A stretch of DNA of 64,000 nt from an uncultured delta proteobacterium (GTDB lineage Bacteria > Desulfobacterota > Binatia > UBA9968), in NCBI GenBank assembly GCA_963728565.1, contig CAVSLC010000013.1:416001-480000 (forward strand), in the 5' to 3' direction. Under the pieces are notes generated by a model that was not told the DNA's origin, did not search any database, and was given only the letters and a program-made list of their open reading frames with translations. This document shows positions 1 to 8,920 of this stretch, piece after piece. Made by a program: the position numbers and the translations under genes. Position 1 is the stretch's first letter. The number at the start of each line of letters is the position of its first letter.

Positions 1-72
1 ATCGCCGCGCCATTGAAAGCTATCTGGTTAAAGATTATTCCGAAGATTTCTAACAAGGGGGGGGCACCTACG

Positions 73-1248
73 ATGTCAGCTATGGCCCGGCGTGTCGCTG
101 GATTTGGCACCACCGTATTCGTCGAGATCAATGATTTGGCGCGACAATGCAACGCAGTCAATCTCGGCCAGGGCGCGCCGGACTTCGATGGTCCGCCGGA
201 AGTTCTTGCGGCGGCGGTGAAAGCGATCAACGGCGAGTTGAATCAGTATGCCCCCGGTATCGGTATGCAGGTATTGCGCGAAGCGGTGGCGCAGCATGCC
301 GAACGTTTCTACAACCAAAAGGTCGATTGGCGGACCGAGGTTCTAATCACCTCCGGCGCGACCGAAGCTGTTTTTGCTGCAATCCTCGGCTTGACCGATC
401 CCGGCGACGAAGTCATCGTCTTTGAGCCCGCCTATGACAGCTATGTGCCGAACATGGTGATGGCGGGAGTTATGCCGCGCTATGTGCCCTTGCGCGGTGA
501 CCAGTGGAGCTTCGATCCGGACGAGCTTGCACGAGCTTTCAATGCTCGCACCCGCGCGATTATCGTCAATACGCCGCACAATCCGACCGGCAAGGCTTAT
601 TCCCGCCAGGAACTTAGCCTGATTGCGGATCTATGCCGCAAGCATCAGGTCGTCGCCATTACCGACGAGGTCTATGAGCATATCCTCTACGACGGAATGG
701 CGCATATACGACTGGCAACCTTGCCGGGCATGGCAGAACGCACAGTGACCATCAGCAGTATTGGTAAAACCTTTAGTATTACCGGCTGGAAGATTGGCTG
801 GGCGATCGGTCCGGCAGATTTGGTGAATGCTGTTAATCGGGCGCACCAGTTCATCACCTTTGCTGTTGCCTCGCCCCTACAAGCCGCGGCCGCACTGGCG
901 CTCAGTTTGCCAGTCAATTATTTCGAAGAGCTGCAGGTGAGCTATCAGTGCAAGCGTAATCGAATGCTCGAGGTGTTCCAACATGCCGGTTTCAGAGTTC
1001 TCAAGCCGCAGGGCAGCTATTTCATTATGGCGGATTGGCGCGCCGTCGCGCCGCGGCATGTGCAGGACGATGTTCAGTTCGCGCGCTGGCTGATAACCAA
1101 GATCGGCGTCGCCTGTATTCCACCCAGCGCCTTCTATCAACAATCCAACAAAGAACTGGGCAGGTACCTGGCGCGTTTTGCAATTTGCAAGAAAGATGAA
1201 ACCCTTGCTGCCGCAGCGCAACGATTTGCGAGGCTAGGAAAACTGTAA
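73..1248 (+). CDS. PLP-dependent aminotransferase class I/II (YbdL/DapC-like)
   Basis: Motifs AVNLGQGAPD, NTPHNPTG, DEVYE and SIGKTFSITGWKIGW (PLP lysine). ATG at 73 preferred over the ORF-track start at 13. Confidence 0.9.
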   Translation: MSAMARRVAGFGTTVFVEINDLARQCNAVNLGQGAPDFDGPPEVLAAAVKAINGELNQYAPGIGMQVLREAVAQHAERFYNQKVDWRTEVLITSGATEAVFAAILGLTDPGDEVIVFEPAYDSYVPNMVMAGVMPRYVPLRGDQWSFDPDELARAFNARTRAIIVNTPHNPTGKAYSRQELSLIADLCRKHQVVAITDEVYEHILYDGMAHIRLATLPGMAERTVTISSIGKTFSITGWKIGWAIGPADLVNAVNRAHQFITFAVASPLQAAAALALSLPVNYFEELQVSYQCKRNRMLEVFQHAGFRVLKPQGSYFIMADWRAVAPRHVQDDVQFARWLITKIGVACIPPSAFYQQSNKELGRYLARFAICKKDETLAAAAQRFARLGKL

Positions 1249-1469
1249 GCTCGCCCGTTCATGCCTAGTGTTGGAACCATAGGAACCGGGCTGTTATCGC
1301 CGCATTTGCAGTCCCAAGATTTTGCTTCCAGGCGATCACCGCCTCTAAGAGGAAGGGTCCCATGAGGCACTAGTCCGCAGACCGATTGACTCGCCAACCT
1401 GGATGCGGCTAAGTTTAGCTCCGCATCATCGCCACAGGCCAATGCTTCTGAACGAGGTCGCATCGTCCG

Positions 1470-1847
1470 ATGAAGACAAAGGGCGAAATAGAGGCAGCCA
1501 TCAGTGAAGCCATGGTCGGTTTCGAAATCGACTGCATGGGCCGCGGTCCGAAAGAGGCTCGCAGTCATATCATCGAAGATTTGATACTGGTCCGGCTCAA
1601 AGGCGTGCTGACACCGGCGGAGCAACAGTTAGCCAAACGCGCCGACGGCGTGGAACTGATTAAAAAAATGCGTTCCACCTTGATTGAAAGCGCGCGGGCC
1701 CAACTTTCAACCATGATCAGCGATGTTAGCGGCGCCAAAGTTCTCGATATTCTTACGGACATCAATACGACGTCGGGGGAGCGTGTATTCATCTTCATAT
1801 TGGACGCCAATCTGGGCAGGGATCTATCGCGCAAAATAACCGCTTGA
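1470..1847 (+). CDS. DUF2294 / MpsC-family protein
   Basis: MKTKGEIEAAISEA..MGRGPKEARS..LKGVLTPAEQQL..DINTTSGERVFIFIL is the DUF2294 pattern; 125 aa. Confidence 0.88.
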   Translation: MKTKGEIEAAISEAMVGFEIDCMGRGPKEARSHIIEDLILVRLKGVLTPAEQQLAKRADGVELIKKMRSTLIESARAQLSTMISDVSGAKVLDILTDINTTSGERVFIFILDANLGRDLSRKITA

Positions 1848-1872
1848 CATTTACCTGGTTCGTTATTAGCGT
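1844..1872 (+). promoter_or_regulatory. sigma70-type promoter for the leader and ABC permease
   Basis: TTGACA (1844-1849, overlapping the DUF2294 stop), 17-bp spacer, TAGCGT (1867-1872). Confidence 0.7.
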
Positions 1873-1884
1873 GTGTCTAGTTTT

Positions 1885-1976
1885 GCTGATGACCTGAGGG
1901 GCTGCTTTTGCACACGGATCGCAGCCAGTCGGGCCATAAGCCGACTTGGATGGTCACATCCCTGTCGGCTTTTTTA
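1885..1976 (+). ncRNA. Riboswitch/attenuator-like structured leader with mutually exclusive terminator
   Basis: Three-stem fold: GATGACC 1888-94/GGTCACATC 1952-60, GGCTGC 1900-05/GCAGCC 1921-26, AGTCGG 1927-32/CCGACT 1941-46. It competes with terminator AAGCCGAC 1938-45/GTCGGCTT 1964-71 plus T-run. Confidence 0.7.
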
Positions 1977-2034
1977 TTGGTTGAAACAGGCCAATTGGAG
2001 GAAGCCCCTATGAGGGCGTCTCGATCAAAGGTGG

Positions 2035-2070
2035 GCCAGTCTAACCCGATGGGGAGAGGCTGGCTTTTTT
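2035..2070 (+). terminator. Second intrinsic terminator in the permease leader
   Basis: GCCAGTCT (2035-42)/AGGCTGGC (2057-64) stem followed by T6, just before the RBS AAAGGAGG. Confidence 0.7.
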
Positions 2071-2090
2071 CTTGAAAGGAGGGACAGACA

Positions 2091-2942
2091 ATGGCTGATC
2101 AGAATCCCGCGGCAGAAGAGGTCTTACTCGACATCCGCGTAGCAGAGGCTTCAGGAGCTTATAAGTTTTACCTGAACAACGAGAAGAAAATTCTCGGGAC
2201 CGCCTCCGTGGCTATATTCCTGACTGTCTGGGAATTAGTCGGTAACACGTTACAGCTAATCAATCCCATGTTCATGAGCGCGCCGTCACTCATATGGAAG
2301 GCCGCCGTGCAACTGTTCACCTCGGGAGAGATATACAACGATCTCCGGGTTAGCGGCATTGAGTTCGCCTGGGGATACGTGCTCTCGGTGATCGTCGGCG
2401 TTCCCTTCGGCATCGCATGTGGCTGGTATAAAAAAATGGCGTACATCTTCGATCCGTTCATTAATGCGATGAACGCGACCCCGCGCGTCGCCCTCCTACC
2501 GCTGGTTATCATCTGGTTGGGCATCGGCATACTCTCGAAGGTGGGCATTATTTTTCTCGGCGCGGTCTTTCCGATCCTGATCAATGCGCGTGACGGGGTA
2601 AAGACCACTCCATACAACCTGCTTACGGCCGCAAAGAGCTTCGGCGCTTCGGAATGGCAGATATTCAGAAGTGTCGTGCTGCCGTCGACTTTGCCATTTA
2701 TCCTTACCGGCTTGAGGCTCGGGGTCGGCAGGGCCTTGATCGGTGTCATGGTCGGAGAGCTTTATGCCGCTACCGCTGGCATCGGCTTTATGATTACTGT
2801 GGCGGGAGCTACTTTCCAGACCGATAAAGTCTTTGTCGGCGTCCTGATCTTCGCCATCACCGGCATGATCTCCATGGAGCTGCTAACCAAATTGGAGGCT
2901 CGCTTCGAGAAGTGGCGCCCGAAAGTCGGGGCGGCAGCATAG
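2091..2942 (+). CDS. ABC transporter permease, NitT/TauT (SsuC/TauC-like) family
   Basis: Multiple TM helices, EAA-like loop AAKSFGAS, GELYAATAGIG; strong RBS. Confidence 0.9.
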   Translation: MADQNPAAEEVLLDIRVAEASGAYKFYLNNEKKILGTASVAIFLTVWELVGNTLQLINPMFMSAPSLIWKAAVQLFTSGEIYNDLRVSGIEFAWGYVLSVIVGVPFGIACGWYKKMAYIFDPFINAMNATPRVALLPLVIIWLGIGILSKVGIIFLGAVFPILINARDGVKTTPYNLLTAAKSFGASEWQIFRSVVLPSTLPFILTGLRLGVGRALIGVMVGELYAATAGIGFMITVAGATFQTDKVFVGVLIFAITGMISMELLTKLEARFEKWRPKVGAAA

Positions 2943-3221
2943 TCAGTATCCAGCGCCTCATTAAAAAGAGAAGTTCCCAGATATTTCCGCACAACAAGCC
3001 GATTACCTCTCCAGGTAATCGGCTTTTTCTTTGGCGATGCTGTCCCCGCTTTTTAAGCTCGAATAACCCTAACAGTCCCTTCGTTTCGAAACTCTTTGCT
3101 TGGCTATCATAAGTTTTTGTACAGCCCTCTTTCTTATAGTCCTTGCCCGGCCTCGAGAAACCACGTATATACCTGCGCAGCTTGAAGGCATAAACGATCT
3201 TCATCGGGAAGGAACACGAAA

Positions 3222-3503
3222 ATGCAACATAAATATAAATCGTATAACATTGTGATCACGAGCTGGGCCAATCTTAACCCGGACGGATTTAGACCGGAAT
3301 ATCGAATCAGTATGAACACTGCTAGTCTCTCCCAAAGTTTAAAAATAAACCTGACGTTTGCTACAAGAAGAGAGGCTGAAGATTACGCGCTCCAAGTCGC
3401 CAAAAAATGGATCGACGAGCAAGGATCCAATCATTCATCGACATTGATCGAAAAGGTCGGTGACAAAAGTCGAAAGCCTCTCAAGAAAGACTCCGTCTTC
3501 TAA
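3222..3503 (+). CDS. Small hypothetical protein
   Basis: 93-aa ORF with RBS (GGAAGGA), AT-rich; ends in the TFATRREAEDYALQVAKKWID helix pattern. Confidence 0.55.
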   Translation: MQHKYKSYNIVITSWANLNPDGFRPEYRISMNTASLSQSLKINLTFATRREAEDYALQVAKKWIDEQGSNHSSTLIEKVGDKSRKPLKKDSVF

Positions 3504-3831
3504 CGTTAAATCGAGCCTGTCCCGGGTCATCCGACATATGACATCGCGCGAAGCAACACATCGTGGCAGAAATTGTTTTGAATTGGGTACACAAACGCGT
3601 CCGCACTAAAGAGAGACATCCTCTTAGCGCACAACGAGTTGACGTCTCCCCACATCTCACTCCAGTATGAAACCATCCCGGCTCAGCCTAGTCCCCAAAC
3701 GCAAGCCTGCGCTCACCCCCGACAACTAAATATTCTTGACCCGCTTATCTCCAGTCGTTTACTCTTAAGGCCGAAGCCGCGGGTACATCGTACGAGATTT
3801 GCCTACCACCCGTTTTATTCACGGAGAACCG

Positions 3832-5481
3832 ATGGCCAAGAACATTGTGATCTGCTCGGACGGAACTGGAAACTCCGCAGTTAAGGACCGCGGCACGAAT
3901 GTATTCAGGATCTTTGAGTCTATCGATCTCAATGGGCACCGACTTAACCCGAAGCTGGATCCGCAGGTGCCGATCTACGACGATGGCGTCGGCACGGAAG
4001 ATTTCAGGCCGCTCAAAATTTTTGCCGGAATAACCGGGTGGGGTTTAAGCCGAAATGTCAAGCAACTGTACAAGGAGCTATGCCGTATCTATGATCCTGG
4101 CGATAAAATATTCTTGTTCGGCTTTAGCCGCGGCGCTTTCACGGTCCGTAGCCTGGTGGGGCTCATCGTCCGATGCGGGATTATCGATGCACAGAAGCAA
4201 CCTACCGCAGAAGCTTTCGACGATTGCGTGAATAGAGCCTACAAGGCTTACCGCAGTTGTTACCGAACGGCCTTGATGCGACTGCTGCGCGGCGACGCTA
4301 GCGCTGCCGCGACCGATGAATTTAGAATCAAATACTGCCACCCGCAGCAAACCAAGATCCATTTCATCGGCGTTTGGGATACCGTCGACGCGGTCGGGAT
4401 GCCTTTCCACACCAGCGATTTCATCAATGCGGTGATCTATCGATTCAAGTTTCCCAATCAAAGGCTAAGCGAGCAGGTCGACCACGCCTACCATGCGTTG
4501 GCTGTTGACGATGACCGTCATTCGTTCCACCCGCTGCTCTGGGATCAACGGGCATCCAGCCCGGGCAAATCGCAAAAGATCGAGCAGGTGTGGTTTGCCG
4601 GCGCCCATGCCAATGTTGGCGGAGGTTACCCGAAGCAAGGCTTGTCACTCACGGCAATGCACTGGTTGATGACCAAGGCTCAAAACGCCGGGCTGCGATT
4701 TATCCCTGACGAGTACGAATACTATCGAGATCACGCCAACGTTGACGACAAACTTTATGATCCCCGCGCCGGCTTAGGCGTTTTCTACCGCTGGAAACCG
4801 CGCGATATCGGGAAGCTCTGTCATGATAATGGGGTGACCCCCGCGATCCATCTGAGCGTGATGGAACGGATCGCGCACGGAACCGAGGACTACAGTCCGG
4901 GAAATCTGCCACCCGGTGCGAGGATTGTTATCACGCCAGCCAATGACCAGGGAGAAGACGCGACCGCGACGACCCGGGCGCTCGCGGCAGAAATGGTATT
5001 GAAATCTGCCCACGCAAACACCCAAAGCTCCTTGTTGAATCGTGTCCGGGGCACCATCAGCGTCGGACGGCTCTCTTATTATGTTTACTTGTCGTCCTGC
5101 GTGGCCGCGTTGATCGCCGCCTCGGGCGTGCTTGATGACCCTTCGAGGACCGGCATCGGGTCAATCACCAAGGGGGTAGCTGTCTTCCTGGTAAATTTAG
5201 TGACATCACCGTTCGCCACGCTCTATCAGGTAGGAAAAAACTTCTCAGGTGACGTCATCCGGGTTGCTTGGATAGCGAGCGGCTTCCTCATCGCTTACCT
5301 GCTGATGAAGATCACCGATAGACGGATGAGCGCAACATTTTCCAGGTTCTGGTTCGAACAACAGAAGCATTTACGAGTCGCGCTGAAGCAGGCGCGTCAG
5401 GAGGCACACGAAATCATCTCAGCCGGAGTTTCTTCGCGGGAGCCGGCTACGAATCGTGCCGACAAAGAAGCCAGGAATTAA
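3832..5481 (+). CDS. DUF2235 (Tle1-like phospholipase alpha/beta hydrolase) with C-terminal TM helices
   Basis: KNIVICSDGTGN, YDDGVGT, GFSRGA nucleophile motif, GVWDTV, QVWFAGAHANVGGGY; hydrophobic C-terminal segments. Confidence 0.88.
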   Translation: MAKNIVICSDGTGNSAVKDRGTNVFRIFESIDLNGHRLNPKLDPQVPIYDDGVGTEDFRPLKIFAGITGWGLSRNVKQLYKELCRIYDPGDKIFLFGFSRGAFTVRSLVGLIVRCGIIDAQKQPTAEAFDDCVNRAYKAYRSCYRTALMRLLRGDASAAATDEFRIKYCHPQQTKIHFIGVWDTVDAVGMPFHTSDFINAVIYRFKFPNQRLSEQVDHAYHALAVDDDRHSFHPLLWDQRASSPGKSQKIEQVWFAGAHANVGGGYPKQGLSLTAMHWLMTKAQNAGLRFIPDEYEYYRDHANVDDKLYDPRAGLGVFYRWKPRDIGKLCHDNGVTPAIHLSVMERIAHGTEDYSPGNLPPGARIVITPANDQGEDATATTRALAAEMVLKSAHANTQSSLLNRVRGTISVGRLSYYVYLSSCVAALIAASGVLDDPSRTGIGSITKGVAVFLVNLVTSPFATLYQVGKNFSGDVIRVAWIASGFLIAYLLMKITDRRMSATFSRFWFEQQKHLRVALKQARQEAHEIISAGVSSREPATNRADKEARN

Positions 5482-5555
5482 GGTTTCGCGGACAGGTCTC
5501 TCGCAGGTTTCGCGAACAACAGCTTCGCCGGCTACTCCCGCGCTCAGAGCGCACG

Positions 5556-6605
5556 TCAGTTGCCGAGCATCTTTTTGACTCGATCGACGACTTCTTTGGG
5601 CTGATCCATCACTTTCTTGATCAATTCTTCCAGCTCTTCGCCGGGCGTCGGATCGACATCCATCTTGGCCTTTTCGGTTTCAAGCAGAAGCTCCGGATCC
5701 TTCAACGCCTTGGCATAGGCTTCGCGGATTATCTTGACGCGCTCCGCCGGCGTGCCCGGAGTCACCAGCATCGGACGGCCCAAGTCTCCGCCGGTTAGTA
5801 TCACCTGAGCGACGCGCCGGCTGGCGTCCGAGCTGTTATATTCGTCAAACAGCTCATAGATCGTCGGCGTATCCGGCAGGCGCGGGTCGCGCTTGCGGCC
5901 GGTCTGAATGATGTGCCGATCGAAGTCTTTCTTGTGCCAGCTGTTGAAGGGTTCCCGGCCGAAATGCGCAGATATGTTGTGAGCGCGGCAAACAACCTCG
6001 TTCTTTTCAACCGCGAGATCGATTTCCGAACCGCCCGGATAACCTATAACGGTATTGAATTTCGCCCCGATGGAGTCTTCGAGCAATCTCGCCAGCAAGT
6101 AGTCGGTGCTTACTGTTCCCGATGAGCCGCATTTAGGCGGCTCCTTCGCCTTGATGATATCTCGGATCGACTGATATGGAGCATCCTTGCGCATGTAAAG
6201 CAAAACGCTCTCGCTTGCCGGAGAGCCGATCCAACTGAACTTGCGGACGTCGAACTGCACTTCCTTACGCCCTACCAGCTGGTCCATGTAGATGTTGTAC
6301 TGCACCAGTCCCAATGTGAGTCCGTCGGGCTTGGCGACATTGTAGACATAGTTTGCCGCGACCAAAGAGCCGGCCGCGGGCATGTTCTGCACCGCGATCT
6401 CAGGAGTGCCGGGAATATATTTTGGCATGTATCGGGCAAAGAATCGCGCCCAGCGGTCATAGAATCCTCCGGGGGTTGAGCCGACGATCAAGCGGATGGA
6501 CTTGCCTTTGTAGAAAGATTCTTGCGCTGCGGCGAGAGGGACAGAACCGAGGTAACTAAGGCAGGCGAGCAAGACAAACATACCCATAACTAAGCGCTGC
6601 TTCAT
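5556..6605 (-). CDS. Tripartite tricarboxylate transporter substrate-binding protein (TctC/Bug family)
   Basis: Signal peptide, FYKGKSIRLIVGSTPGGFYD, QNMPAAGS, KPDGLT, GYPGGSEIDLA; RBS GGAGGAG before ATG at 6605. Confidence 0.9.
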   Translation of the reverse strand: MKQRLVMGMFVLLACLSYLGSVPLAAAQESFYKGKSIRLIVGSTPGGFYDRWARFFARYMPKYIPGTPEIAVQNMPAAGSLVAANYVYNVAKPDGLTLGLVQYNIYMDQLVGRKEVQFDVRKFSWIGSPASESVLLYMRKDAPYQSIRDIIKAKEPPKCGSSGTVSTDYLLARLLEDSIGAKFNTVIGYPGGSEIDLAVEKNEVVCRAHNISAHFGREPFNSWHKKDFDRHIIQTGRKRDPRLPDTPTIYELFDEYNSSDASRRVAQVILTGGDLGRPMLVTPGTPAERVKIIREAYAKALKDPELLLETEKAKMDVDPTPGEELEELIKKVMDQPKEVVDRVKKMLGN

Positions 6606-6645
6606 GACTCCTCCACAAACTCGTACTTCACGCGAACGTCCGATT

Positions 6646-7773
6646 TTACCGAACTTGGAACTCTTTGATTGCGTCATCGTTAAGCTCCAGGCCGAGCCCC
6701 GGCTTTTCAGTCAGAGTTATCCATCCTTTGACCGGCGCCGGCAGGTCCTTATAGATGACGTTTGCCGTCAGCCAATTATTTACGTGAATCTCGGCGCGCC
6801 AACCGTTGGGAACAGCAGCGTGCAGGTGAATATCGAAATGATCGCCATTTCCAACCGGCAAATTGAACGCGTGCGCCAGTCCCGCCGCTTTCATGCCCAT
6901 GGTGAATCCGCCTACGGAAAGGACGTGGATGTTTAAGAAATCGACAGAATTCTGCTTTACCAGGTCGGCAAGCTTGAAAAAATTGTCCCACTGACCGGCG
7001 GCGATAGGGATTGACGTTTGTTTCCGCAGCTCGGCTAATAAGTGTGGGTCGTTGTGGATGATCGGCTCTTCGAACCACATGAGATTATAAGGCTCAAAGC
7101 GTTTACACCATCGAACCGCGGCATCATATTTCATCAAACAGTTGGCATCGGCCATCAGTTCGACATCGTCGCCTACCGCTTCGCGCACCGCTCTGATGCG
7201 AGACTCATCTTCCGCCGGATTGTCTTCGCGATGCTCGCCGCTGGCGCCGGAAGGATCCATCTCGCCACGAATATTTGAGCGGCCGACTTGAATTTTGAGT
7301 CGGCTCTGTCCGTCGGCGACCCAATGCTTGGCCGCCTGGGCGAGCTCGTCACGACTATAAGCGCGCAATCCGAAGGTGATGTAGGAGGGAATGGCTTTTT
7401 GCGCGCCGCCCAACAAACGCCATACGGGAGCGTTGTAGAATTTCCCTTTTATGTCCCAGAGCGCGACATCAATCGCGCTGGCGGCAAAATTCCACACCCC
7501 GGCGTGGGCGCGCGTGTTGAATTTCCAGAGCATCTGATGCATCAGGCGCTCGTTCTCCAGCGGATCCTTGCCCTTTAAAAACGGCAAGAGGTCCTGCTGG
7601 ATAAACGCCGCCGTGGCCGAGTGCATGAACCCACCGAGCTGGGAGATACCGATTCGGCCGTCGTCGGTTTTAACTTTCAGCAGCCGCACGGCCGTGCGCA
7701 ACGGCTGCTTGAACAACGGCGGAGTCACCGGAATATTTTGCAGCTCGAGAATTTCGATAGCAGCTACTTTCAA
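6646..7773 (-). CDS. Mandelate racemase/muconate lactonizing enzyme (enolase superfamily)
   Basis: SAIDVALWDIKGK, LMADAN, WFEEP, KPGLGLEL; TTG start with RBS. Confidence 0.9.
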   Translation of the reverse strand: MKVAAIEILELQNIPVTPPLFKQPLRTAVRLLKVKTDDGRIGISQLGGFMHSATAAFIQQDLLPFLKGKDPLENERLMHQMLWKFNTRAHAGVWNFAASAIDVALWDIKGKFYNAPVWRLLGGAQKAIPSYITFGLRAYSRDELAQAAKHWVADGQSRLKIQVGRSNIRGEMDPSGASGEHREDNPAEDESRIRAVREAVGDDVELMADANCLMKYDAAVRWCKRFEPYNLMWFEEPIIHNDPHLLAELRKQTSIPIAAGQWDNFFKLADLVKQNSVDFLNIHVLSVGGFTMGMKAAGLAHAFNLPVGNGDHFDIHLHAAVPNGWRAEIHVNNWLTANVIYKDLPAPVKGWITLTEKPGLGLELNDDAIKEFQVR

Positions 7774-7891
7774 AATGGTTCTCCTTTGAAGTTTTTATCG
7801 ACGCGTTAGGTAAACAGCAGGCACTGACAGCCCCGCGAAGATGATCGCGGCGATTGCACTGTCAGCAACTGACTTCTCCGCCGCCGTTTCG

Positions 7892-8920
7892 TTACTGCGC
7901 CAGTATTTTTCGGATGCGATCGACGACATCCTGCGGCTGATCGATGACTTCACGAGCGATCTTGGCGAGCTCCTCGCCCGATACCGGTGTTATGTCCAGC
8001 TTCTTTTGCTTTGCTTCCTCCAACAGCCCTGGATCACTCATGCTTTTCATAAAGGCATCGCGTAGCAACTGGGTGCGATCCGGCGGCGTGGCTGGGGAGG
8101 TCACTACGGGTCGGCCGAGCTCGCCGGAACCGAGCATCACCGTCGCTACTCGTCGACCCAGGTCCGGTGTTTTGACTTCGTCCATCAGCTCGCTCAAAAG
8201 CGGGGTATCCGGCAATCGCGGATCGCGGGTGCGGCCGGTTTGCATAAGTATCCGGACAAAGTTTTTCTTGCGCCAAGTATGATATGGCTCACGCTGGAAA
8301 TAGGCCTGAGTAGTAAATGAGCGGCAAACTACCTCGTTGCGCTCAGTGGCGAGGTCGATCTCGTTGCCGCCCGCATAGCCGGTGACGATGGTGAATTTAG
8401 TCCCGAGAGTTTCCTCGAGCATCCGCGGGATATAGTGACCGCTGGTTCCCGTCCCAGTGGCGCCGCATTTGGGAGGTTCCGCCGCTTTGCGGACGTCCTG
8501 CATGGTCTTGTAAGGTGTATCGCTGCGCATGTAGAGCATGTGCTCCGATTTGTCCATGCTGGCAATCCAGGCGAACTTCGTCCAGTCGAATTTCACTTCT
8601 TTATTGCCCTGGAGCTGATTGAAGTAGTGCGCCGGATTGATGGAAGCCAGAGTCAGGCCGTCAGGCTTGGCAACTCCGTAAACATAATTGGCTGCGACCA
8701 ATCCCCCTGCCGCAGGCATATTCTGCACGACAACGGTGGGGTTGCCGGGCAGATACTTTCCGATGTGCGCCGCCAGCAACCGCGAGTAGATGTCATATGC
8801 CGTGCCTGAGCCGGAGCCGACGATGAACGTAATCGTTTTGCCTTGATAGAAAGGCGCTTGGGCGTGCAGTTCAGTAAGAAGAGCGAACACAATCAAAAGC
8901 GATAAAAACAATTTCTCCAT
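7892..8920 (-). CDS. TctC/Bug-family substrate-binding protein
   Basis: Signal peptide; paralogous to 5556-6605 (FYQGKTITFIVG, QNMPAAGG, KPDGLT, PPKCG). Confidence 0.9.
   Translation of the reverse strand: MEKLFLSLLIVFALLTELHAQAPFYQGKTITFIVGSGSGTAYDIYSRLLAAHIGKYLPGNPTVVVQNMPAAGGLVAANYVYGVAKPDGLTLASINPAHYFNQLQGNKEVKFDWTKFAWIASMDKSEHMLYMRSDTPYKTMQDVRKAAEPPKCGATGTGTSGHYIPRMLEETLGTKFTIVTGYAGGNEIDLATERNEVVCRSFTTQAYFQREPYHTWRKKNFVRILMQTGRTRDPRLPDTPLLSELMDEVKTPDLGRRVATVMLGSGELGRPVVTSPATPPDRTQLLRDAFMKSMSDPGLLEEAKQKKLDITPVSGEELAKIAREVIDQPQDVVDRIRKILAQ

Follow-up and report, generated by a model that had tools for sequence, protein, structure and literature searches.

What connects the mpsC (DUF2294) gene with the solitary ABC (ATP-binding cassette) permease gene that lies behind it in an uncultured delta proteobacterium of the Binatia, and what may the 243-nt intergenic stretch between the two contain? 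The window analyzed here is a stretch of 64,000 nt from contig CAVSLC010000013.1, in which gene annotation by Pfam covers the first 8 kb; all features of the mpsC-leader-permease locus lie on its forward strand. A first-pass annotation had proposed that a tandem, riboswitch-like leader controls the permease. The leader is indeed a structured and conserved RNA, genetically and phyletically linked to mpsC: it represents an uncatalogued, new family of RNAs, for which MpsC is a new candidate partner, while the kind of mechanism is a known one. The reading preferred here, to which a probability of roughly one half is assigned, is that MpsC, or a factor under its control, acts on the leader RNA and shifts the competition between terminator and antiterminator, in a HutP-like way.

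The mpsC gene (1470-1847) encodes a protein of 125 aa, matching positions 1-110 of the 111 of profile PF10057 (122.4 bits with a cut-off of 23, E 1.2e-35), and is present in single copy in the host genome, which is 80.6% complete. Its stop codon, TGA at 1845-1847, sits inside the -35 box of the leader promoter (1844-1872), made of TTGACA at 1844-1849, a 17-nt spacer and TAGCGT at 1867-1872, overlapping the stop as originally described. This promoter is not called by a simple consensus scan, because its -10 box is weak and fits only 3 of the 6 consensus positions. An equally spaced TTGAC is found in 17 of 20 distinct copies from the same bacterial family (16 of 18 when the unpublished genome G012 is left out); the three copies lacking it are second copies within operons. 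The placement of the stop codon within TTGAC recurs in three Nitrospirota loci (L110, L112, L113). From this promoter, the leader extends for about 210 nt; the ribosome-binding site of the permease gene, AAGGAGG at 2076-2082, is located 8 nt 5' of the ATG (2091) and is conserved in the locus alignment.

For the leader as a whole the folding energy is -96.1 kcal/mol (z -4.4; none of 200 shuffled sequences is as stable), and its minimum-energy fold contains two terminators, each closing one module. The RNA opens with a 5' tail (1879-1888), whose G1885 and G1888 reach at least 95% conservation across phyla. The tail is followed by the sensor-like P1-P2 domain of module 1 (1889-1937), defined by the computed fold and by covariation: P1 is formed by 1889-1891/1935-1937 and 1893-1897/1929-1933, P2 by 1900-1905/1921-1926, and the two are parted by a 2x2 purine internal loop (1898-1899, 1927-1928). 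Terminator T1 (1938-1976) has a stem at 1938-1945/1964-1971, an inner hairpin at 1948-1952/1957-1961 and a U-tract at 1970-1975; it folds at -21.6 kcal/mol (z -6.3). Module 2 (1980-2071) consists of hairpin Pb and terminator T2 (2033-2042/2057-2066, with a U-tract to 2070; -21.8 kcal/mol, z -3.0), and includes a decoy copy of the T2 5' strand at about 1990-1996. It scores weakly with module 1 models, at 20-33 bits (20 bits, E 0.0036, with the covariance model R2 described below); the two modules therefore look like diverged duplicates. Module 2 is devoid of a promoter of its own, and T2 ends 20 nt 5' of the permease ATG, where no promoter fits.

The tandem of two terminator-ending modules, with T2 placed before the ribosome-binding site, is therefore as first annotated. 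Both T1 and T2 have the anatomy of intrinsic terminators, with G+C-rich stems each followed by UUUUUU, and the U run is unchanged in all 41 cross-phylum sequences; a simple terminator scan called neither, because their loops hold an inner hairpin. Since the leader promoter and both terminators thus went unmatched by the scans, the case for their reality rests on conservation. Two other features of the leader were considered. Its sole open reading frame (1908-2075, TTG start), examined as a possible leader peptide, crosses alignment gaps that are not multiples of three and was discarded; the pairing of 'GGCCA' with the start-codon region, predicted by RNAalifold, is only 5 bp long, one of its strands being coding sequence.

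Conservation follows the pairing. In 18 family copies, P1, P2 and T1 are paired in 95.3% of the cases and 7 of their 24 pairs are changed on both sides, values reached by none of 500 shuffles. In 41 distinct cross-phylum copies, whose alignment was fitted to a covariance model and thereby favours the structure, the figure is 94.8%, versus 76.3% in shuffles, with compensatory changes at 21 of the 24 pairs; all 13 pairs of P1 and P2 are changed on both sides. T1 is 99-100% paired in both sets. Across phyla, free covariation is seen in P1, P2 and the upper T1 region; C1941 C1942 and their T1 partner, G1967 G1968, are invariant in 41 of 41 sequences. The length of the P2 loop varies widely across the alignments, and only about five unpaired positions are conserved at 90% or above (alignment columns G7, G10, R21, G60, R71). 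Judged by its compensatory changes, module 1, composed of P1-P2 and T1, is a real RNA family. For module 2, T2 is 98.8% paired and Pb 88% in 19 family copies; a further helix, Pa, is only 58.5% paired on a MAFFT alignment and was rejected.

The three-way junction originally proposed for module 1 stands in part. One of its helices, 1900-1905/1921-1926, is P2, and covaries. The closing helix, 1888-1894/1952-1960, is complementary here, but is paired in only 61% of the family and was abandoned as a conserved helix; in its place 1889-1897 pairs with 1929-1937, forming P1, with support from covariation. The third helix, 1927-1932/1941-1946 (AT), is pairable in 93.5% of the cells in 18 family copies, hardly varies, and does not rise above shuffled sequences. 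Overall, three segments bearing GG can pair with C1941 C1942: the 5' tail (helix P0), the 3' strand of P1 (AT) and the 3' strand of T1. For P0, in which the tail meets the 5' strand of T1, covariation gives no backing. A competition of P0, AT and T1 for the invariant CC is plausible on these grounds, and the combination of a small unpaired core with an invariant CC/GG would fit competing helices and protein contact better than an elaborate ligand pocket.

No named riboswitch class was recognized by the first-pass annotation, and none emerges from Rfam 15 (4227 models): positions 1-8000 of the window give, at E <= 1, only a chance small nucleolar RNA match at 3139-3191, and ten related loci give, at E <= 0.1, only a transfer RNA. 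The models of the Na+ (DUF1646), Li+ (nhaA-I) and guanidine-I (ykkC) riboswitches match neither these positions nor the ten loci. DUF2294 is named in a single fungal paper without relation to the subject, and among the papers listed on riboswitches in connection with bicarbonate, sbtA, dabA or dabB none describes such an RNA, although supplementary motif lists could hold it. A structure overlapping the Shine-Dalgarno sequence upstream of cyanobacterial sbtA is different from the leader, and the part of that report dealing with it does not mention DUF2294 (PMC12873609).

How general is the association with mpsC? By blastn, the leader is found in 17 of 101 related genomes, all from one family; in thirteen loci aligned end to end, promoter, both modules and ribosome-binding site are conserved, while the stems vary. 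R1, a covariance model of module 1, matches 40 of 90 family genomes, with 1-4 copies each, and none of 33 genomes from two sister families. The genomic context was determined for 45 R1 copies; genome G012 is left out here, while it is included in the genome tallies, and each of its arrangements is also found in G011. Five further copies were treated separately. Thirty of the 45 copies start 34-68 nt past the last aligned MpsC residue, and two are matches of the module 2 type, about 140 nt behind mpsC. The remaining 13 do not have mpsC directly upstream: they are second copies inside operons, copies preceding TctC genes, copies at contig ends, those of G118 and G049, and a false positive.

The first gene behind R1 codes for the permease in 12 cases, a 36-aa peptide in 9, a 54-aa peptide in 8, a TctC protein in 5, a CRP-type protein in 2 and a membrane protein of about 180 aa in 1; the permease is also the gene behind the leader in G003, G028, G034, G016 and G008. 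In most of the permease and 36-aa-peptide loci module 2 follows module 1. Further downstream, family loci carry genes for an MpsC paralogue, an HtpX-type M48 peptidase, a Tmemb_14 protein and a TerC protein. The two peptides, the commonest Binatia targets after the permease, have no Pfam or NCBIfam match: the 54-aa one (L048, 1645-1809) features two predicted helices, the 36-aa one (L028, 2869-2979) a single helix and a basic tail.

A promoter followed by a structured RNA of about 95 nt and a Rho-independent terminator is also the anatomy of a small RNA gene; moreover the mpsC stop lies about 90 nt 5' of T1, which is the only terminator after mpsC. Module 1 might accordingly be a free-standing small RNA, or a stabilising 3' untranslated region of mpsC ending at T1, with the downstream gene expressed by leakage. 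This is very improbable: the element is always oriented with, and close before, the next gene, many loci offer no space for another promoter, second copies occupy intergenic positions inside operons, and module 2, promoterless, ends just before the ATG. As a weak additional point, contigs assembled from soil RNA libraries cross both T1 and T2: they cover 1892-2082, bridging mpsC into the leader (1631-1922) and T2 into the permease gene (1982-2139). These data, consisting of assembled contigs only, carry no information on starts, ends, strand or levels, may include DNA carry-over, and are uninformative where cover is lacking; they are compatible with transcription across mpsC, leader and permease.

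The coupling to mpsC extends far beyond this locus, into other phyla. A single-protein query with MpsC, limited to one genome per species, returned 80 loci, 54 of which derive from metagenome-assembled genomes with other labels: Nitrospirota, Manganitrophus and Troglogloeales; Planctomycetota; Salinibacter, Salinivenus, Chitinophagales and Ignavibacteria; Thermodesulfobacteriota, Symbiobacterium and others. R1 already matches many of the 54 just past mpsC, with the same layout. In 22 loci with an R1 match, the element lies on the same strand, 34-214 nt from the mpsC stop, in 19, and at a distance of 665-1102 nt in the other three (L100, L105, L148). R2, a second covariance model built from the copies of other genomes, including close relatives, matches 39 of the 54 loci within 2.5 kb of mpsC (E <= 0.01), and recognizes positions 1879-1976 of the window with 74.6 bits (E 1.9e-17), placing the leader studied here in the MpsC-linked family. 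The hallmark of this family is a P1-P2 domain with a purine internal loop, followed by a GCCGAC...GUCGGC terminator.

What genes are placed behind the element changes from group to group. Beyond the Binatia, 61 open reading frames behind it were scanned with Pfam. DabB and/or DabA are found in 10 loci, in addition to Ca. Manganitrophus; SbtA in 4, once followed by a PII protein; DUF4914 in 4; CBS proteins in 3, followed by a HAD hydrolase in L126 and L141, and by an MpsC paralogue and phosphoenolpyruvate carboxykinase (PEPCK) in L140. An ATP-citrate-lyase-like gene, a PAS histidine kinase and an AI-2E transporter also occur. Two of these loci, L140 (Pirellulales, 3164-4439; leader, CBS protein, MpsC paralogue, PEPCK) and L106 (Nitrospirae, 3251-4111; leader, ATP-citrate-lyase-like gene), have carboxylation or CO2-fixation enzymes as targets, rather than transporters. 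In the planctomycete genome G131 (10 Mb), 15 RNA copies are present along with 6 PF10057 matches; most of the copies have no adjacent mpsC, and the genes behind them include those for CsbD, Pmp3, DUF1328, YflT, catalase-like, cupin and KaiC-like proteins, lactate/malate dehydrogenase and a fatty-acid desaturase. Such numbers fit a trans-acting factor with a regulon. Nine of the 15 copies lie within 25 kb around an mpsC gene (C29, 971-996 kb; L155, L162, L165-L168, L170, L171), while L160 and L161, on other contigs, are identical including their flanks, which suggests a recent duplication.

Inorganic carbon, advanced in the first-pass annotation as a possible signal, does appear as a theme in other phyla, through the genes for DabB and DabA, SbtA with PII, PEPCK and ATP-citrate lyase that follow the RNA; in Binatia and Planctomycetota, by contrast, the regulon is made up of stress genes and genes for small membrane proteins, and carbon uptake is not represented. 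According to the portion of Fan et al. 2019 that deals with these genes, mpsC does not lie together with mpsAB outside staphylococci, and transcription of mpsA is lower at 5% CO2 (PMC6689103). The first statement is contradicted by the Nitrospirota and Salinibacter-group loci, where the RNA sits between mpsC and dabBA or sbtA.

RNA and protein also tend to occur in the same genomes, as judged from raw counts, in which related genomes are not independent. Among the 90 family genomes, R1 is found in 40, PF10057 in 42 and both in 36. Four genomes have the RNA only: in G045 a 2.7-kb contig ends at the element, in G125 the R1 match, formed by the tRNA-like end of a gene of the transfer-messenger RNA type and a terminator, was dismissed as a false positive, and G118 and G049 are discussed below. 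As to genomes with MpsC only, in G035 a contig end follows mpsC at 70 nt, so that G035, like G045, is an exception merely through truncation; G014 and G041 have a diverged module 1, with module 2 found when filters are off; G020 and G032 have weak or partial protein matches, and in G124 nothing was found. Of 121 sampled Nitrospirota genomes, 10 carry an R2 match and 24 a PF10057 match, with 9 carrying both; RNA and mpsC are on different contigs in three of the nine carriers (G142, G160, G185).

These data may be brought together in the following mechanism. The region 1879-2090 would be a cis-acting transcription-attenuation leader, with two related modules, each made of a structured domain and an intrinsic terminator. 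Transcripts would enter it from the promoter in the mpsC stop codon and by read-through of mpsC. By default both terminators would form, and little transcript would reach the permease gene: the default state is taken to be OFF because two strong terminators lie in series with no later promoter, and expression would therefore need active antitermination. MpsC is the simplest candidate for the factor required, because mpsC stays upstream while the target changes, and because the RNA is almost confined to MpsC-positive genomes. In a signal-dependent state, MpsC would bind the P1-P2 domain and the purine-rich flanks, and favour pairing of the invariant CC in the T1 5' strand with the GG of either the 5' tail or the P1 3' strand. 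T1 would then be blocked from forming, and the same would happen at module 2. What is signalled may be inorganic-carbon or ionic status, or membrane stress. Direct binding of the RNA by MpsC, the ON direction through antitermination and the nature of the signal are the parts of this scheme that we infer.

Several observations, collected here and in the next two paragraphs, weigh against this mechanism. The alternative helices do not stand out from chance: in the cross-phylum copies P0 is 73.9% paired versus 72.5% in shuffles, and AT 87.8% versus 86.8%. According to Fan et al. 2019 (PMC6689103), deletion of mpsC in S. aureus produced no growth phenotype. Of the 24 MpsC-positive Nitrospirota genomes, 15 have no R2 match at E <= 1e-4 with strict filters.

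Other observations favour the main and serious rival, namely that the leader is a direct riboswitch, rather unlikely as this may be. Each P1-P2 domain would bind a small molecule or ion (inorganic carbon, Na+ or a general stress signal), mpsC would be a member of the same response, and T1 would double as the mpsC terminator. The architecture, including the tandem arrangement, is that of classic transcriptional riboswitches. Copies without adjacent mpsC include those upstream of TctC genes in G026 and G040, and most of those in G131; real-looking RNAs occur in genomes without a PF10057 match, such as G118 (67 bits, 88% complete), G049 (36 bits, 99% complete) and, among the Nitrospirota, G204. 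Furthermore, MpsC paralogues are frequent downstream targets, being found behind the element in 4 of the loci beyond the Binatia, followed once by an HtpX-type and once by a TerC protein; proteins of the MpsC type could accordingly be members of the regulon rather than its regulators. A riboswitch, however, would have to build a selective pocket from the few conserved unpaired positions, and would leave unexplained why the place of mpsC directly upstream, and the overlap of its stop codon with the leader promoter, are kept as the regulated gene changes. Against it also stand the near restriction of the RNA to genomes that have MpsC (9 of the 10 Nitrospirota carriers, 36 of the 40 family carriers) and regulons as heterogeneous as carbon uptake, stress genes of the CsbD/Pmp3/YflT type and small membrane peptides.

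The protein itself does not have a recognizable RNA-binding fold. The AlphaFold2 model of MpsC is of high confidence (mean predicted local distance difference test score, pLDDT, 96.7). No solved relative is found by sequence (best match E 0.57), and a Foldseek search of the PDB gives, at best, E 0.013 (H-NOX, Bet3/TPC6, uL23), with no clear solved relative; in VIA-align the best Z is 6.7, with TRAPP/Bet3 at 5.8, RbfA at 5.6 and V4R (2oso) at 4.8, all in the range called common. As far as the predicted model and these searches go, no fold family can be assigned to MpsC, or excluded. Its isoelectric point is near neutral, 6.6 here with a median of 6.75 in 50 homologues; six basic and seven acidic positions are conserved. 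The lack of a recognizable RNA-binding fold would suit an indirect control, where MpsC acts on the leader through RNA polymerase, a termination factor, another RNA-binding protein or the promoter DNA, the RNA being a mere terminator device. The synteny and co-occurrence data apply equally to this case, and the weak similarity to ligand-binding modules (H-NOX, Bet3, V4R) would be appropriate for a sensor. We regard it as decidedly unlikely, however, since the DNA shows no conserved operator, the spacer of the promoter is free to vary, conservation starts at the transcribed tail and follows RNA pairing, and the need for a mere terminator would give the conserved P1-P2 domain nothing to do.

For an action of MpsC on the leader RNA, known systems offer several parallels. 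The hutP, pyrR and licT genes each lie directly upstream of the terminator controlled by their product. HutP of Bacillus subtilis (hutP-hutH) probably remodels its RNA in a way that keeps the terminator from forming. The likeness lies in a small regulator gene placed directly upstream of an intrinsic terminator that gates the next genes, as in the 30 of 45 family copies described above. The differences are that MpsC does not match the HutP family, PF10057 being the only Pfam match of the 125-aa protein, and has another predicted fold, and that here the promoter overlaps the regulator stop, a P1-P2 domain is present and the arrangement is tandem. For the BglG/SacY/LicT/GlcT proteins, a stabilised RAT (ribonucleic antiterminator) hairpin, overlapping the terminator 5' strand, prevents termination, and one protein may serve several leaders. 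The short structured element over the terminator 5' strand is shared, while RNA sequence and shape are different, no sugar-phosphotransferase genes are nearby, and no CAT or PRD domain is found by Pfam in MpsC or its neighbours.

PyrR and TRAP act by promoting termination; the operon that PyrR attenuates begins with pyrR itself, and an induced second protein can feed back on such a system. As in PyrR and TRAP/anti-TRAP, a leader-bound protein would choose here between terminator and antiterminator, and the downstream MpsC paralogues would suit a feedback role; antitermination, instead of termination, is proposed, and there is no relation in sequence or fold. ANTAR-regulated leaders feature two hairpins with hexanucleotide loops, of which the second overlaps the terminator, and an ANTAR protein; in the present family the P2 loop length varies, and no ANTAR domain was found in the Pfam-scanned proteins of the window and related loci. 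Finally, the Na+ (DUF1646), Li+ (nhaA-I) and guanidine-I riboswitches, the last of which also controls NitT/TauT-type ABC transporters, share with this leader an aptamer-like domain joined to an intrinsic terminator, an occasional tandem and the control of transporters; they differ from it in that here there is no Rfam match, the unpaired core is very small and a protein partner gene, seemingly obligate, is present.

DUF2294/MpsC is a widespread family, to which 1465 cluster representatives from a set of 1.84 billion proteins belong at E <= 0.001, and is now tied, by position and phyletic pattern, to an uncatalogued transcription-gating RNA. A wider proposal, doubtful at present, is that MpsC founds a new class of signal-sensing RNA-binding antiterminators: regulator and target would form a portable cassette, present in at least four or five phyla and wired to inorganic-carbon uptake and carboxylation (DabBA, SbtA/PII, PEPCK, ATP-citrate lyase) as well as to genes of membrane and general stress, and would sense CO2/bicarbonate or a coupled ionic status. 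If this were true, the third gene of the staphylococcal mpsABC locus would gain a function. The data point to a mode of control, so far unknown, that bacteria other than cyanobacteria may use for inorganic-carbon uptake and stress genes. In annotation, the element may serve as a mark of conditionally expressed operons in Binatia, Nitrospirota and Planctomycetota genomes known only from metagenomes.

As to the permease controlled by the leader in the window (2091-2942, 283 aa), it belongs to the NitT/TauT type, with a PF00528 (BPD_transp_1) match of 102.5 bits (E 2.9e-29). As originally noted, it is a lone permease, with no ABC ATPase or binding-protein gene beside it: mpsC lies upstream, a terminator and then unrelated open reading frames downstream. 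The comparison with the bicarbonate transporter CmpABCD, drawn by the first-pass annotation, finds no support, as no CmpA-type binding protein or ATPase genes adjoin the permease and no bicarbonate-specific model appears among the NCBIfam matches listed. The best NCBIfam matches are TauC, SaoP, SsuC and NtrB, all far below the equivalog cut-offs. The permease is 83-97% identical across genera, versus 62-98% for MpsC in the same genera (loci L005-L021), and is found in more than 120 metagenome clusters at 87-92% identity, some labelled Verrucomicrobiae or Eisenbacteria; by sequence comparison, such conservation is unusually strong for a lone ABC permease without partner genes nearby. A second permease copy lies upstream of mpsC in G017 (L012/L025), G015 (L015/L027), G011 (L016/L023) and G033 (L034). 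These copies have a plain promoter and terminator of their own and no leader, the order in G017 being permease-mpsC-leader-permease.

Some minor features complete the picture of the region. Upstream of mpsC, a promoter-like site (1386-1415) may be read from the sequence, with TTGACT at 1386-1391, a 17-nt spacer and TAAGTT at 1410-1415; it is kept in a genus-level alignment, which, being limited to one genus, gives weak support. The permease transcript is closed by an intrinsic terminator at 2996-3031, with a 13-bp stem followed by a T run. Further along, a TctC-family binding protein gene adjoins one of the mandelate racemase/muconate lactonising enzyme type (5556-6677 and 6646-7773, both on the reverse strand); unlike TctC genes of other family genomes, the one in the window has no leader match with R2. 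A 560-aa protein (3799-5481) features an N-terminal Tle1-like phospholipase domain of the type VI secretion system (T6SS; E 5.9e-74) and a hydrophobic C-terminal part, with no T6SS genes beside it in the first 8 kb. Between this gene and the permease terminator, an open reading frame of 93 aa (3222-3503), with no Pfam match, has a start that is conserved in genome G004 (L035).

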